Source: Endomicrobiia bacterium
GTDB lineage: Bacteria > Elusimicrobiota > Endomicrobiia > DTEH01
DNA: 64,000 nt
Assembly: GCA_025059805.1 (NCBI GenBank)
Contig: JANXDG010000068.1
Location: forward strand, 39,838 to 103,837
Direction: 5' to 3'
Below are positions 40,324 to 57,779 of this stretch, one piece after another. A model generated the notes under the pieces. It made no database searches. It saw only the letters and a program-made list of their open reading frames with translations, and was not told the DNA's origin. The translations under genes were made by a program, and so were the position numbers. Each line of letters opens with the position of its first letter. The first letter of the stretch is position 1.

Positions 40324-40854
40324 ATGAAATCTATAAAGAGTTGGTTGTTTTATAAATTACTATTTCCATCTTCTCTCTTGATGTCGAGTATTTTGCCAAA
40401 AAAGTTTTCTTTACAACTACTTAAGTGGATTCTAGAACAGAATAACAAAATAGTGTTAAGCAGAAATAATAGAAATATTAAAACCATACTTATACTTCTA
40501 CCAAGGTGTTTACAGTACTTTAGCTGTGAATTTAACTTAGTATCATCAATTGAAAATTGCCGTAGATGTGGTAAATGCAAGATAAAAGACATTGTTGAGT
40601 TTAAAGAAAAATATAAACTTGAAAATATAAAAGTTGCACCTGGTGGTAGATTAGCAAAATTTTTTGTAGAACAGGCTCGTCCTGATATTGTCATAGCAGT
40701 TGCCTGTGAATTAGAACTTATAATCGGCATAAAAGAAATTTTTCCAATTAGAACTTTAGCTGTATCTAATATAGTAGTTAACAAACCTTGCGTAAATACT
40801 GATGTTGAGATTAGAAAAATAGAAGAGTTTATAAATTTACTAGTTAAAAGGTAA
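40324..40854 (+). CDS. Hypothetical Cys-containing protein (DUF116-like), tightly packed between fmt and hemW
   Basis: CRRCGKC motif and VIAVACELEL. A 3-nt gap to each neighbour argues for the + strand. The fully overlapping - strand ORF 40350-40883 is rejected. Confidence 0.5.
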   Translation: MKSIKSWLFYKLLFPSSLLMSSILPKKFSLQLLKWILEQNNKIVLSRNNRNIKTILILLPRCLQYFSCEFNLVSSIENCRRCGKCKIKDIVEFKEKYKLENIKVAPGGRLAKFFVEQARPDIVIAVACELELIIGIKEIFPIRTLAVSNIVVNKPCVNTDVEIRKIEEFINLLVKR

Positions 40855-42014: not shown

Positions 42015-43349
42015 ATGCAGAAAAAAATTCTATCCTTTATCATTTCTTGTATTTTTTTAATAGGTATACAATTTATTTATACTGTTACTGTTACCGAAGA
42101 AAAAATTACTTTGGAACGTTCTATTCGTGAACGTGTTGAAGAATTAGTTGAAAAGATTATAGGAAGTAAAAACTTTGTTGTACTTGTTACGGTTGAGATA
42201 AAAACTCCTGAACAAACACCAAGTGGTAATACCGATGTAAGTAGACCTGTTTACCCAGGTATGTATCTGCGTGAAGAAGAATATTTACCTGGCGTTACTT
42301 ATTCATACCTTCCAGTAACAAATCCAGCAACAAATCTGCCAATGCAAGTAGCAATAGATAAAATTATTATTAACATAGCTATGGATAGTGAAGTACCAGA
42401 TGAGTTAATAAACAGAGTTAAAACAGAATTGCCAATATTGTTAGGTCTTAACCTTATGCGAGGAGATTCCGTCAATATTAATAAAATTAAATTTCAAACT
42501 ATACCAACCTGGAGAGTAATATTGGAACAAATGTTACCACATCTTTATATACCATTATTGATTATAATTGTTGCTTTATTTCTCTTTGGACCTGTAACAC
42601 ATTTTTTCAAGACAGTAGTTCAATCTGTACAATTGAGGATTGATGCGGATGCAAGATTACGTAGTACTGAAAAGACAGTAGTAACTAGCCAAGGACAGAC
42701 CGGATTACTACCTGGTACTGAATTTACATTGCCGGAACCTTCGCCTGTTGCTGCATTGGGTATGCCAGGTTCAGCCGAACTTAAGAAAGAAGAAAAAATC
42801 TTACGTAAGCATTTCAGTTTTATCAACAAAGATAATTTGAAAAGTTTATGGTATCTAATTAAAGACGAAGAACCGTCAGTAATAGCTCTTATAATGAGTT
42901 ATCTTCCACCAGACCTTGTAGCCGAACTAATGACAATGTTGGATATGAAAACTCAAGCAAAGGTTGCTTTAGAACTTGTTTCCATGAAAATGCCCGAACC
43001 AGAAAAAGTTCAGGAAATTGAAAATTATATAAAATCAAGGATTGACTATTGTATTGGTGGTGAAGATTACTTTTTATCACTTCTTGACCGTGCAGATAAG
43101 GAGGTGCAAGAAGATATCTTACATATGTTATCATTACAAAATCCTGCACTGGCAGATAAGATACGAGGAAAAATATTTTTATTTGAAGATATTTTATTTC
43201 TTGATAAAACGACATTACAAAAAATTATTCGCGAGGCACAACGGCGTGGTGTCTCTTTAGCTTTAGCTCTAAAAGGTGCCTCTGATGAGATAAAGAATAA
43301 AATTATGGATTGTCTGACAGAAGGTGGTCGTGCAATGTTGGCAGAATAA
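42015..43349 (+). CDS. Membrane protein fusing a FliF/YscJ-type ring-building periplasmic domain to FliG middle and C domains. The FliG C-domain is cut short by an in-frame TAA at 43347.
   Basis: TM1 ILSFIISCIFLIGIQFIY. Periplasmic LERSIRERVEELVEKIIGSKNFVVLVTVEIK and ELPILLGLNLMRGDSVNINKIKF resemble FliF ring-building motifs. TM2 LYIPLLIIIVALFLFGPV. Cytoplasmic VIALIMSYLPPDLVAELMTMLD is FliG-middle-like. KIFLFEDILFLDKTTLQKIIREAQRRGVSLALALKGASDEIKNKI is FliG-C-like. The tracked ORF starts at TTG 41997. Confidence 0.7.
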   Translation: MQKKILSFIISCIFLIGIQFIYTVTVTEEKITLERSIRERVEELVEKIIGSKNFVVLVTVEIKTPEQTPSGNTDVSRPVYPGMYLREEEYLPGVTYSYLPVTNPATNLPMQVAIDKIIINIAMDSEVPDELINRVKTELPILLGLNLMRGDSVNINKIKFQTIPTWRVILEQMLPHLYIPLLIIIVALFLFGPVTHFFKTVVQSVQLRIDADARLRSTEKTVVTSQGQTGLLPGTEFTLPEPSPVAALGMPGSAELKKEEKILRKHFSFINKDNLKSLWYLIKDEEPSVIALIMSYLPPDLVAELMTMLDMKTQAKVALELVSMKMPEPEKVQEIENYIKSRIDYCIGGEDYFLSLLDRADKEVQEDILHMLSLQNPALADKIRGKIFLFEDILFLDKTTLQKIIREAQRRGVSLALALKGASDEIKNKIMDCLTEGGRAMLAE

Positions 43350-43535
43350 ATAGATTTACTTGGAGATGTCGGAGAGAAAGCTATTAGGGAAGAACAAAAG
43401 AAGATAGTTGCTGTTGTGCGTAATTTAGTTAACGCAGGTGAAATTAGTATAGACAAAACAAAATTTATAAAAGAACAAATTGAAAAACAAAAGAGTGTTA
43501 CAATAGAACCTGAAGTTGTGGAAGAAAAAAGGTAG
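43350..43535 (+). pseudogene. In-frame continuation of the FliG-like C-domain after the TAA at 43347-43349 (IDLLGDVGEKAIREEQKKIVAVVRNLVNAGEISI...)
   Basis: Same frame as the upstream ORF. Aligns with the FliG C-terminal helices (...EAMGPVRLKDVEEAQQKIINIVRRLAEAGEIVI). No ATG or SD of its own. The next stop is TAG 43533-43535. Confidence 0.55.
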
Positions 43536-43567: not shown

Positions 43568-44335
43568 ATGGATCTAATGACGGTGGTTGGTTTACTTTTA
43601 GGTATTGGTGCTGTATATTATACGTTGCAAGCTGGTGGTTTGTTGAATATGATATATAACTTCCCTTCATTAGTTCTTGTACTAGGTGGAACAATAGCTT
43701 CTACCTTTTTAACCTATCCATACAGAATATTAAAACGCGTCCCTGCGGCAATGATGTTAGCATTATTCCCACAAAAAAGATGGACAGCTGAAAAGTATAT
43801 AAATTTGTTAGTTGACTTAGCTGAGAAAGCAAAACGTAACGGTCTCGACGCTTTGCAGGAAGAATTGCCAAAAATAAAAGATCACTTTTTAGTCGACGGA
43901 TTACAAATGGTGCTAGACGGATTAAATCCAGAAATTGTAAGAGAAAATTTGATTAAAGAAATTACTTTTATAAGACGACGACATCAGCAGGTACATGCTG
44001 TCTTTCGCAGTATGGGTGCTTATGCACCAGTGTTTGGTCTTCTTGGTACGCTAATAGGAGTCGTAGGTGTCTTAAAAAATTTGACAAATCCAGAAGCGAT
44101 AGGCTCGTCAATGGCAGTTGCCGTCATTACAACTTTTTATGGTATTTTTGGTACGAACTTTGTCTTTCTGCCAATTGCAAATAAACTCGCAGCATATACT
44201 GAAGAAGAATTATTACTTAAAGAAGTATCAATTGAAGGTATATTAGCAATACAAGCCGGAGAGATACCTTCTGTAGTAAGTAGAAGGTTGCAAGCGTTTT
44301 TAGCTCATAAAATGAGACAACGTAAAACAAAATAA
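43568..44335 (+). CDS. motA: MotA/PomA-family stator proton-channel protein
   Basis: 4-TM topology with conserved ...AYAPVFGLLGTLIGVVGVL and AVAVITTFYGIFGTNFVFLPIANKL. SD AAGGAGGG. Confidence 0.8.
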   Translation: MDLMTVVGLLLGIGAVYYTLQAGGLLNMIYNFPSLVLVLGGTIASTFLTYPYRILKRVPAAMMLALFPQKRWTAEKYINLLVDLAEKAKRNGLDALQEELPKIKDHFLVDGLQMVLDGLNPEIVRENLIKEITFIRRRHQQVHAVFRSMGAYAPVFGLLGTLIGVVGVLKNLTNPEAIGSSMAVAVITTFYGIFGTNFVFLPIANKLAAYTEEELLLKEVSIEGILAIQAGEIPSVVSRRLQAFLAHKMRQRKTK

Positions 44336-44353: not shown

Positions 44354-45031
44354 ATGAGTTTGGAAGAAAAAGAAGATCAAGATATTGAAGAAGAAGCAGA
44401 AGAAAAAGTAGAAGTTACAGAAAGCGAAGAGATTAAACAAGGATTAAATATTTGGAGAACGGTATATTCCGATATGTCTACCAATCTTACATTATTTTTC
44501 CTAATTCTTTTTGCATTTACTAGATTAAGTGCTTCAAAAAGAGAAGAACTTTTACAAGCATTGTCTCGGCTGGGTCAGAAAGTAGAAGTTGCACAGGAAG
44601 AAATTGTAAAACAAGAAACTGATGAATTAACACGAAAACTTGAAAAAGTTGCTACTGTGGAGATTAAAGAAGAGGAGATTGTAATTAATCTCCCGTCACC
44701 AGTATTGTTTGATTTAGGCAAGGCGGAACTTAAAGAGCAAGCCAAAAATATTCTAAGTGAAATTGCGAGTAGTTTAAGGTCAATATCAGGTGACGTTGTA
44801 ATTGAAGGACATACTGACAATTTGCCTATATTTGGAGGCAAGTACAGATCTAACTGGGAACTTTCGGCAGCACGTGCATTTTCTGTGAGAGATTATCTTA
44901 TTAAAGAAGGTATTTCTGAAAAAAGAATTTCGTGTGTAGGGTATGGCGAATATAAACCTGTAGCAGCAAATGATACCGAGGAGAACCGTGCAAAAAATCG
45001 TAGGATTGAGATAAAAGTGGTGAGGAAATGA
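44354..45031 (+). CDS. motB: MotB-like stator subunit 1 (single TM + OmpA-like peptidoglycan-binding domain)
   Basis: WRTVYSDMSTNLTLFFLILFAF resembles the MotB [20 protein letters not shown] segment. C-terminal VVIEGHTDNLPI...NWELSAARAFSVRDYL...NRRIEIKV is an OmpA/MotB domain. Confidence 0.8.
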   Translation: MSLEEKEDQDIEEEAEEKVEVTESEEIKQGLNIWRTVYSDMSTNLTLFFLILFAFTRLSASKREELLQALSRLGQKVEVAQEEIVKQETDELTRKLEKVATVEIKEEEIVINLPSPVLFDLGKAELKEQAKNILSEIASSLRSISGDVVIEGHTDNLPIFGGKYRSNWELSAARAFSVRDYLIKEGISEKRISCVGYGEYKPVAANDTEENRAKNRRIEIKVVRK

Positions 45032-45035
45032 ATCA

Positions 45036-45746
45036 ATGGTAAATAAGAAAAAAATTTCTACAGCCGAACAAGATAGTTATCAAATTGATACAGAAAGTTG
45101 GGTTACTCCATATGGTAACTTAATGACTTTTCTTATGATACTTTTCTTTTTGTTATATGCATATACTTTCTTTCTTAATGATATTGATTATGAACGATTG
45201 ATGAATAGAGTTCAAGCACAACTTGCTTCTCTTGATCTAAAATCGAGTATGGAACTAAAAAAAAGAGAAAAAGAAACCGAATTTGCAAGAAAGCTTAGTG
45301 AATATGTGAAAACAAAAGGGCTTTCTGGAGCAGCTGAAATCAATATCTCAGCTCAGAAAATAAGGATTATGTTTACTGAACGCGCCGTGTTGTTTGCTTC
45401 AGGTAGTGCAGAACTTGATAGTAATGCAATTAATGTCCTAAATGATTTAGCAGATTTAATTAAAATATTACCTGAGACTAACCGTATCATTATTGAAGGT
45501 CACACAGATAATGTACCTATAAGGACTAAAGAATTTGCTAATAATATGGAGCTTTCAATTGCAAGAGCAATTTCAGTATTAAATTATTTTACGAAAAAAA
45601 AGAACTTACCTCCTGAGAGGTTTGCAATTGCTGGTTATGGTGAATTTCGTCCTGTGGACATGTCTACGGATATTACTAAGGCTAATGATACTGAAGAAAA
45701 ACGTGCAAGAAATAGACGTATAGAAATTATAATTTCGCGTACTTAG
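45036..45746 (+). CDS. MotB-like stator subunit 2 (paralog)
   Basis: WVTPYGNLMTFLMILFFLLYAY TM/plug segment. IIIEGHTDNVPI...NMELSIARAISVLNYF...NRRIEIII OmpA/MotB domain. SD GAGGAA. Confidence 0.8.
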   Translation: MVNKKKISTAEQDSYQIDTESWVTPYGNLMTFLMILFFLLYAYTFFLNDIDYERLMNRVQAQLASLDLKSSMELKKREKETEFARKLSEYVKTKGLSGAAEINISAQKIRIMFTERAVLFASGSAELDSNAINVLNDLADLIKILPETNRIIIEGHTDNVPIRTKEFANNMELSIARAISVLNYFTKKKNLPPERFAIAGYGEFRPVDMSTDITKANDTEEKRARNRRIEIIISRT

Positions 45747-56086: not shown

Positions 56087-57016
56087 ATGAGAAAGATAAA
56101 AATAGCAGTATTGTATGGTGGATTTTCATCAGAACGGAATATCAGTCTTAAGACAGGACGTGCTGTATTTGAAAATCTTAAAAAATGGAAAGATTTTGAT
56201 GTAAAACTTGTTGACCTTAAAAAAGAATATTGTTTGGAACAAGTTTTGTCACTAAAAAAACAAAGAATAGACCTTGTGTTCATAGCATTACACGGAAAAT
56301 TTGGTGAAGATGGTAAATTACAAACTCTACTTGATACTTTAGGTATTAAATACACAGGTGCTGATTCTACATCATCAATGATTGCAATGAATAAACACCT
56401 AACTAAAATACTTCTTAAGGGAAATGGAATACCCACTCCTGAGTGGGAGAATATAAATTCAATTGAGGAGATTGAACATATTAAATTAAAACCTCCTATA
56501 GTTGTCAAACCTTCAGATGAAGGTTCAACTATAGGTGTATCTGTTGTCAGAAATAAAAATGAATTAGCATTCGCTGTGAGAAAAGCTTTGAGATATAGTA
56601 CCACAGTGATTATTGAAAAATTTATCAATGGAAAAGAAATTACAGTACCAATACTTGATAGTGAAATACTTCCAATGATTGAGATAGTCCCAAGGCTTAG
56701 TGAGTATTATGATTTCAAATCTAAATATAGTAAAGGTGGATCTCAACATATCATCCCACCACAAGTTGATAGAAAGATGATAAGCAAAATAGCTGACATC
56801 GCGAGAAAAGCAGCTAGAGTCATAGGTTGTGAAATACTTTGCAGAATTGATTTAATTCTTGATAAAGATAGAAATACACCTTATGTCTTAGAGGTAAATA
56901 CTATACCTGGAATGACACCTACTTCTCTTTTACCAGAAGCGGCAAGTTATTGCGGAATTACTTTTCCAGAATTGGTTAGAAAAATTGTTTTTTCCTCATT
57001 GAAAAAGTATGAGTAA
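56087..57016 (+). CDS. ddl: D-alanine--D-alanine ligase
   Basis: KIAVLYGGFSSERNISL, ALHGKFGEDG, LEVNTIPGMT. Confidence 0.9.
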   Translation: MRKIKIAVLYGGFSSERNISLKTGRAVFENLKKWKDFDVKLVDLKKEYCLEQVLSLKKQRIDLVFIALHGKFGEDGKLQTLLDTLGIKYTGADSTSSMIAMNKHLTKILLKGNGIPTPEWENINSIEEIEHIKLKPPIVVKPSDEGSTIGVSVVRNKNELAFAVRKALRYSTTVIIEKFINGKEITVPILDSEILPMIEIVPRLSEYYDFKSKYSKGGSQHIIPPQVDRKMISKIADIARKAARVIGCEILCRIDLILDKDRNTPYVLEVNTIPGMTPTSLLPEAASYCGITFPELVRKIVFSSLKKYE

Positions 57017-57779
57017 ATATCGTAGTTATAAAATATCGTTGAGAAGAAAAAAAAGTAGTAAAGTTTTAAGAATTGGAAGAATTATTGTTCTCCTAGCAGT
57101 AATAGTTTTAGCTGGCAAATATTTTAAATTAGTAACGATGAAAATTAAAGATATCTTTTCTATTAAAGAGGTTATCATATTAAAAAATAATACGACAGTT
57201 CCAGATGATGTATTACTGAATAATTTTTCTACACCAATGACGGTTTTAACTTATACTAAAACATTGAGTAATATTAAAAAAATATATCCCGAGATAAAAC
57301 AGCTTAAAGTCTTAGGTATACCTTTTCAAAAGCTAAAGTTAGAAGTTATATCTGAAATTCCAATATATTACACTAAGGTAAAAGAACAAACAAAATTTTT
57401 CTCAAAAACCATAGGATGGTACAGTGTGTACGATGTAAGTCTTGTTTCACTTAAAAATTTGATCGAGTTAGAAAATAGAATAGAGGACAAAAATATTTTA
57501 TTCTTAACAGATAAAATAGTTAGAAAAATTTGTTGTAGTAAATTAAAGGGTGAAATTATTAAAATAATTGTTGGGGAAAATGGTGAGTGGAACTTGATTA
57601 TAAGAAAAGAAGATGGACAGTCACAATTGTTAGTAGATGAGAATATAATAGATATTGATGAAGAAGATCTTCATTTTATCATTTCGCATATGAACAGGTT
57701 TGCTGGTAAAATCTATGCAAGGTTAATTACCGAAGGTAGAATATATGTTGAAGAAAACGAACAAAAGTTGTATAATTAA
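57009..57779 (+). CDS. ftsQ: Cell division protein FtsQ/DivIB-like
   Basis: Basic N-terminus plus one TM (IIVLLAVIVLAG), then a POTRA-like region. Sits between ddl and ftsA. Confidence 0.6.
   Translation: MSKYRSYKISLRRKKSSKVLRIGRIIVLLAVIVLAGKYFKLVTMKIKDIFSIKEVIILKNNTTVPDDVLLNNFSTPMTVLTYTKTLSNIKKIYPEIKQLKVLGIPFQKLKLEVISEIPIYYTKVKEQTKFFSKTIGWYSVYDVSLVSLKNLIELENRIEDKNILFLTDKIVRKICCSKLKGEIIKIIVGENGEWNLIIRKEDGQSQLLVDENIIDIDEEDLHFIISHMNRFAGKIYARLITEGRIYVEENEQKLYN

Follow-up and report, generated by a model that had tools for sequence, protein, structure and literature searches.

A premature TAA codon, probably a recent nonsense mutation, in the FliF-FliG fusion gene of an Endomicrobia population

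The stretch of DNA analysed here (hereafter the window) comprises 64,000 nucleotides of an Endomicrobiia bacterium (assembly GCA_025059805.1, contig JANXDG010000068.1, positions 39,838 to 103,837 of the forward strand) and carries, on its plus strand, a gene for a FliG-like protein followed by motA and two motB genes. The fliG-like open reading frame (ORF) extends from an ATG at 42015 to position 43346, a total of 444 codons with the C-terminal end ...CLTEGGRAMLAE*, and is closed by an in-frame TAA at 43347-43349 (context ...GCA GAA TAA ATA GAT...). The NCBI gene model has the identical start, which is backed by orthologues beginning at the equivalent ATG, and is annotated as an ordinary 444-amino-acid (aa) hypothetical protein with no pseudogene label. 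Beyond the TAA the same frame stays open for 61 sense codons (IDLLGDVGEKAIREEQKKIVAVVRNLVNAGEISIDK..., 43350-43532) until a TAG at 43533-43535. We consider that the TAA is a real and very recent nonsense mutation (CAA to TAA) in an Endomicrobia population, most probably inactivating an orphan rotor-like protein in which FliF and FliG parts are fused, and give this reading a probability of roughly 0.75.

The stop lies within a conserved domain. Residues 372-444 cover positions 3-73 of the Pfam FliG_C profile (108 positions), and the 61-aa piece encoded after the stop matches, on its own, positions 76-108 (E 1.5e-4); the TAA therefore falls at profile positions 74-75, inside the domain. The post-stop piece shares 80% identity with the C-terminal end of the nearest orthologue. 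From base composition, the chance of 61 stop-free codons is 0.004, and on the plus strand a length of 61 codons is reached by no more than 1.7% of the inter-stop runs. The open stretch is thus more than a chance effect, and the first-pass annotation, made from the sequence alone, was right to describe a TAA interrupting a FliG-like domain, a frame open for 61 codons to the TAG at 43533, and a downstream segment that aligns with the FliG C-terminus. It had also stated that the downstream piece has neither an ATG nor a Shine-Dalgarno sequence of its own, and indeed the only in-frame start candidates past the stop are GTG codons at 43416 and 43518, both without a Shine-Dalgarno sequence, which makes separate expression of the piece unlikely. 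A 39-aa ORF predicted by a gene caller in this region has no family match.

To place the stop in its family, we searched 5.8 billion protein clusters, which yielded, besides canonical FliG proteins, 31 members from Endomicrobia and other Elusimicrobiota; the 22 full-length ones among them (477-583 aa, 40-79% identity) were aligned. The column of the stop holds glutamine in 22 of 22 aligned orthologues, all of which read through it and none of which has a stop there, and it sits in the invariant motif LTEG[GA]RAML[A]EQ[IM]DLLG. At DNA level, the codon is CAG at 11 and CAA at 2 of 13 loci, and the window itself prefers CAA for glutamine (397 CAA against 171 CAG). One C>T transition, at 43347, is therefore enough to derive the TAA at 43347-43349 (plus strand) from the CAA that probably encoded the family-invariant Gln445 in the ancestor. 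Orthologues all ending at this position with an unconserved segment downstream, the outcome named in the first-pass annotation as evidence against its view, were not what the alignment revealed. The nearest relative is L017/P0002 (locus and protein, respectively), and no relative closer than 71% identity appeared in a scan of GTDB species representatives. One contig with a family member is labelled Thermodesulfovibrio sp. isolate SKYB4 (JANXBR010000109.1, 3758 bp); it carries an Endomicrobia-type FliF-FliG fusion gene that is 69% identical to that of the window and closely resembles the one of the Endomicrobia genome SKYB53, and its sequence suggests that it is probably a mis-binned contig.

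The first-pass annotation placed the stop exactly at a conserved acidic residue of FliG, a claim that holds for the torque helix of canonical FliG and fails in the protein's own family, where the column is the invariant glutamine. In the alignment to Thermotoga maritima FliG (1LKV), the TAA falls where the torque helix has its second acidic residue (...LKDELEY...). We take its Escherichia coli counterpart to be D288/D289, mapping from T. maritima to E. coli numbering. D288/D289 of E. coli FliG contacts R90 of MotA (PMC12505986). By hand mapping through the T. maritima alignment, the equivalents of E. coli R281, D288, D289 and R297 in this family are G, E, Q and G, respectively, so that the charges of the helix are only partly kept.

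Whether the TAA could be a product of assembly was assessed by comparing separate records. The identical 444-aa product is found as MCS7152070.1 (locus tag NZ928_06825, from a metagenome-assembled genome, or MAG, labelled Endomicrobia bacterium) and as MDW8055414.1 (GCA_033581535.1, contig JAVQTB010000003.1), and the TAA-bearing gene is also present on a Logan-assembled contig of run SRR15826899 (SRR15826899_6444). In the 8.3 kb compared, the GenBank contig JAVQTB010000003.1 departs from the window at two sites (46804 and 47195) and the Logan contig at three (39507, 40379 and 47195). The TAA is present in each of the three assemblies, none of which is identical to another. As they disagree at four other sites and agree on the stop, an assembler-specific artefact is unlikely; the differing sites (39507, 40379, 46804 and 47195) indicate either strain microdiversity or different consensus calls in one population.

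The only serious rival to a real mutation is a read-level artefact or polymorphism, in which most or all cells carry CAA and the TAA is a low-coverage consensus or base-calling error, or a minor haplotype picked by the assemblers. The heterogeneity just described fits such a population or read set, related MAG contigs of similar projects are labelled as low coverage (cov 4.5-6.6), another MAG of the family has a probable homopolymer error in the same gene, and in the searched collections the species is represented by a single run or sample: JGI metagenome contigs, scanned for the exact pattern with the mutated base given as N, contained 0 matches, and exact look-ups of the FliG-like and MotA proteins returned only the same two records and no further strain. 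Nevertheless, the three assemblies come from different pipelines, substitution errors seldom outlast a short-read consensus, and no full-length allele at 90% identity or more was found in the 5.8-billion-cluster collection. That this look-up is able to detect such twins is shown by a control, in which it recovered the full-length twin (P0161) of another truncated model of the family (P0016). We infer that the cells themselves, and not just the reads, carry the mutation, and regard the sequencing or assembly error put forward in the first-pass annotation as weakened and, on balance, unlikely.

The truncated model used in this control is a second, independent C-terminal disruption in the family. 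In the MAG Endomicrobiia DT_Bin_9 (L006 5360-5375), a deletion of 1 nt in an A7 run (cagAAAAAAtt) shifts the frame of the last helix about 18 codons past the equivalent of Gln445, and the full-length twin, from a Logan assembly, is identical to it up to the frameshift. This deletion is probably a homopolymer error or a polymorphism.

The segment behind the stop gives a measure of the age of the lesion. Compared with L017/P0002, its proportion of non-synonymous differences (pN) is 0.109, against 0.121 for the pre-stop part overall and 0.085 for the FliG part, with a proportion of synonymous differences (pS) of 0.74. Synonymous sites are saturated relative to this nearest relative (pS 0.66-0.75), so the ratio of non-synonymous to synonymous substitution rates (dN/dS) is unable to date the event, and counts of lineage-specific amino acid changes and the quality of the substitutions were used instead. 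The post-stop segment contains 0 indels and 0 further stops. With six outgroups, only 3 of its 61 residues are changed specifically in the window lineage (E>D, K>R and I/L>V), all conservatively; these 3 events on 147 non-synonymous sites, taken as wholly post-stop and neutral, would still amount to no more than about 0.05 substitutions per site (upper 95% bound), only a small part of what separates the window from its nearest relative. Over the whole gene, the lineage-specific substitutions have a mean BLOSUM62 score of +0.93, close to that of the sister (+1.0) and far from the -0.26 of random non-synonymous mutation (P < 5e-5). Gene-wide neutral decay can accordingly be rejected, and purifying selection acted on the gene up to the very recent past. 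The relaxed selection and secondary lesions expected of an old pseudogene were not found; if the lesion is real, the mutation would, on these sequence comparisons, be very young.

Two forms of recoding have been considered. In a reassignment, TAA would simply encode glutamine in this organism, as its position at an invariant glutamine column might suggest. However, TAA terminates 41 of the 61 ORFs of the window, several with a tandem second stop; groES and groEL both end in it, as had been pointed out in support of TAA being a normal stop here. About 40 window genes checked with Pfam and NCBIfam have full-length domain matches and end at their own TAA, TAG or TGA with no other in-frame TAA. 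The tRNA genes of the window are limited to Glu-UUC, Pro-CGG and Arg-CCU, and among these three there is neither one with anticodon UUA nor a suppressor tRNA. Reassignment is practically negligible as an explanation. No other split gene was found by Pfam and NCBIfam in the window, the ftsA/next-ORF pair (57803/59099) lying outside this check. Several pairs of same-frame neighbours were looked at as candidate split genes and proved to be unrelated genes: trpB-end/folC, glycosyltransferase/amine oxidase, fabF/rnc, cutA/def/fmt, sigma factor/phosphoribosyltransferase, radical SAM/SAM hydroxide adenosyltransferase and methyltransferase/queF.

Programmed or exploited readthrough would have the UAA decoded at a useful rate, for example by a near-cognate tRNA-Gln, so as to restore the ancestral protein, with the stop acting as an attenuator of expression. 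That tRNA-Gln can decode UAA as a near-cognate codon is known in principle, and the post-stop codons are intact, in frame and undecayed. On the other hand, the stop is absent from all 22 orthologues; UAA is recognised by both release factors and leaks less than the other stops; ordinary terminators of the window often share the TAA-A context; and no RNA structure that might stimulate readthrough was detected in the 120 nt around and after the stop, which fold no better than shuffled sequences (z = +1.12, with 176 of 200 shuffles folding at least as well). Nor is there a suppressor tRNA in the window to assist. The option of programmed readthrough raised by the first-pass annotation thus finds little in its favour, and we hold it to be very improbable. 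A variant in which selection maintains the TAA as a valve on expression, with rare near-cognate decoding by tRNA-Gln yielding a trickle of coupling-competent full-length protein beside a majority of uncoupled 444-aa ring subunits, would be compatible with the undecayed 61 codons and is opposed by the same unconserved stop, by UAA itself and by the lack of an RNA signal; it too seems very improbable. If true, such a valve would tune an otherwise uncharacterised non-flagellar rotary machine made of FliF/FliG and MotAB.

What the truncation removes depends on the architecture of the protein, for which an AlphaFold2 model was made of the orthologue P0002, the closest full-length one, with the same residue numbering as the window protein. 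The model (mean predicted local distance difference test score, or pLDDT, of 75, and above 90 for residues 400-480) starts with a signal-anchor helix, which is followed by an alpha/beta domain in the periplasm (residues ~50-160), a transmembrane (TM) helix (167-192) and a linker that is disordered; next come FliG_M and FliG_C, the latter with helices at 436-448, 454-473 and 482-495. In Foldseek searches the periplasmic domain matches structures of the FliF ring-building domain RBM3 (8Z5V, 8Z4G and 6SD1; E 3e-5 to 1e-3) and the C-terminal half matches FliG (1LKV; E 1e-12), while the Pfam family PF08345 (YscJ_FliF_C) matches in relatives. The modelled FliG_C superposes on 1QC7 and on the MotAB-bound 8UCS_H with a TM score of 0.91 and a root-mean-square deviation (rmsd) of 1.7-1.9 A. 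At the sequence level, FliG_M and FliG_C have Pfam E-values of about 1e-15 each, and phmmer aligns the protein with 1LKV over both domains (E 2e-36). Together, the FliF RBM3 fold matches and the FliG matches identify the protein as a natural FliF(RBM3)-TM-FliG(M,C) fusion.

All parts of this fusion lie on the plus strand. The periplasmic alpha/beta domain, resembling the RBM3/S-ring domain of FliF in the AlphaFold2 model and in Foldseek, is encoded at 42162-42494; the second TM helix, as placed by the P0002 model, at 42513-42590; and the FliG middle domain (residues 277-343, PF14841, E 1.6e-15, also aligned to 1LKV) at 42843-43043. The first two thirds of FliG_C (residues 372-444), including most of the torque helix (436-448), follow at 43128-43346 and complete the truncated coding sequence (42015-43346), whose product is the one identical to MCS7152070.1 and MDW8055414.1. 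The flagellar FliG equivalog identity was considered for this protein and rejected, as the TIGR00207 score is 95.1 bits, below the cut-off of 226.7, and FliG_N, the domain by which FliG binds the FliF C-terminus, is represented only by a sub-threshold overlapping match (19.8 bits, cut-off 25), leaving the protein with no FliG_N domain. The N-terminal module forms a family of 79 clusters at 50% identity among 1.84 billion representatives; the distant members sampled all have FliG_M and a complete FliG_C reaching profile position 104-108 of 108 (10 of 10), and some add TPR repeats.

By ending at the TAA, the product lacks 62 aa. Lost with them are three residues at the end of the torque helix, FliG_C's final core helix (454-473) and a family-conserved tail helix (482-495), all of which are encoded in the orphaned codons at 43350-43532. 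It keeps the membrane-anchored FliF-RBM3-like domain, FliG_M and most of the torque helix. To judge from the structure of canonical FliG and from conservation, the truncated FliG_C would be unable to fold or to engage the stator, and with the core helix 454-473 gone and a full FliG_C kept throughout the family, the truncated product is presumably non-functional. The alternative is that the 444-aa protein is stable and useful, for instance as a ring uncoupled from the stator, and is a strain-level variant under selection. The domains that remain would allow for this, as would the intact and highly conserved stator genes downstream, but no family member ends near this position, close orthologues and the ten distant members alike keep the full FliG_C, the removed helix 454-473 is part of a conserved and confidently modelled core, and the orphaned codons are still conserved, which would be unexpected had they long been dispensable. 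A tolerated or functional truncation is accordingly improbable, and the suggestion in the first-pass annotation of a strain-variable truncation that modulates the stator interface does not find the support in the family that it would need. A literature search for phenotypes of FliG truncation returned nothing usable.

A recent nonsense mutation, another of the options listed in the first-pass annotation, is thus favoured by the glutamine present in all orthologues, the single C>T step to the stop, the recurrence of that stop in three assemblies, the undecayed downstream segment and the absence of recoding signals. The course of events would have been as follows: a C>T transition at 43347 would have turned the CAA codon of the family-invariant Gln445 into TAA; translation would end 62 residues early, with a 444-aa product; FliG_C would no longer fold or engage the MotA stator, which would make this a loss-of-function allele; and the allele would now be either a pseudogene that has only just arisen or the majority variant of the population sampled, with motA-motB-motB still intact. 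Several points weigh against this reading. The three assemblies may share one sample or read set, and a low-coverage consensus error or a minority/majority polymorphism would be compatible with their agreement. The loss of function is deduced from FliG structure and conservation. The undecayed 61 codons would be expected equally from continued translation by readthrough. Finally, a three-taxon relative-rate test counts 43 window-specific against 20 sister-specific substitutions in the FliG-like gene (p = 0.005), whereas ten flanking genes are symmetric (window versus L017 and L019); this excess could hint at an earlier relaxation of selection, though the changes are conservative and located mostly in the N-terminal part (29 versus 10).

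The genes downstream show no comparable damage. The TAG at 43533-43535, the ancestral stop, lies 32 nt before the ATG of motA, matching the 26-32 nt between the fliG-like stop and motA in relatives. The gene motA (43568-44335, plus strand) encodes an intact, full-length A subunit of a flagellar-type stator, 96% identical to its orthologue in the sister species and matching solved MotA structures at E 1e-47. Two motB paralogues follow on the same strand, both with plug and OmpA domains: the first (44354-45031) has the universally conserved channel aspartate (VYSDMSTNL), and in the second (45036-45746) it is replaced by asparagine (PYGNLMT). Asparagine is found at this position of the second paralogue in the window and at loci L017, L019, L002, L004, L007 and L009, and the more distant L016 has aspartate (PYADFMT). 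As far as sequence can tell, the Asp/Asn pair suggests either a heteromeric pair of B subunits or a non-conducting regulatory paralogue.

In the relatives the gene order is conserved as cutA-def-fmt-DUF116-hemW-fliG-like-motA-motB-motB-histidine kinase-amidase-murI, and motA-motB-motB always follows the fusion gene in the Endomicrobia loci compared (for example L017 4476-8185 and L019 6001-9700). No other flagellar genes were detected in the 64-kb window or in the syntenic loci, and published work reports flagellar machinery to be missing from every genome of the phylum (PMC11257099). Free-living Elusimicrobiota are described as commonly having orphan homologues of fliG and motAB, whose role is unclear (bioRxiv 10.1101/2022.07.08.499144). 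An interpretation of the motAB genes as a Zorya (ZorAB) system was rejected, there being only generic MotB-to-ZorB homology and a conserved housekeeping synteny; PADLOC gave no match for the MotA or FliG-like protein of the window, and neither a ZorA-type subunit nor ZorC/D was found by it. The FliF(RBM3)-FliG and MotAB set may be a minimal non-flagellar rotor-stator machine.

Two further observations concern other genes of the window. A 256-aa ORF between ddl and ftsA (57009-57779) has no Pfam match at E<=1e-6, and its position would fit a divergent FtsQ. NCBIfam gives no match for the DUF116 gene (40324-40854). An antisense ORF of 177 aa covers this gene completely and, in a genome of 32% G+C, is probably spurious.

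The event itself is of an ordinary kind, and the gene family is more interesting than the mutation. The record should be labelled a disrupted gene, in place of a hypothetical protein of 444 aa. It has modest value as a natural knockout, a wild Endomicrobia population whose assembled consensus has a broken rotor-like gene next to an intact motA and both motB genes. This suggests that there are conditions in which the rotor-like protein can be dispensed with. The conserved set in this flagellum-less phylum, composed of FliF(RBM3)-FliG, motA, motB and a motB without the channel aspartate, deserves a study of its own.

Among known systems, the allele resembles other nonsense-mutation pseudogenes and loss-of-function alleles in its single-step stop at a conserved sense codon of an essential domain with intact neighbours. 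It differs from typical cases in being exceptionally young, with no secondary lesions and no relaxed downstream codons, and in being known only from MAG and metagenome assemblies. The locus is of the same kind as those described in bioRxiv 10.1101/2022.07.08.499144, which likewise have a fliG-like gene and motAB without structural flagellar genes; the FliF-RBM3 fusion, the tandem MotB pair and the truncated allele are not described in the passages of it that were read, and the architecture and synteny are established here. With canonical FliG (of T. maritima and of Salmonella/E. coli) the protein shares FliG_M and FliG_C, and its gene lies directly upstream of flagellar-type motA/motB, but where canonical FliG has FliG_N, the window protein carries, covalently joined, TM helices and a periplasmic domain resembling FliF RBM3. 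A parallel in design exists with the engineered FliF-FliG fusions of Vibrio (8Z4D/8Z4G) used to solve MS-ring structures, in which a FliF ring-building domain is likewise followed by FliG on one polypeptide. Those fusions were built in the laboratory from complete FliF and FliG (945 aa), whereas the fusion of the window family is natural and much shorter (506 aa in its ancestral form), with only the RBM3-like domain of FliF and without FliG_N.

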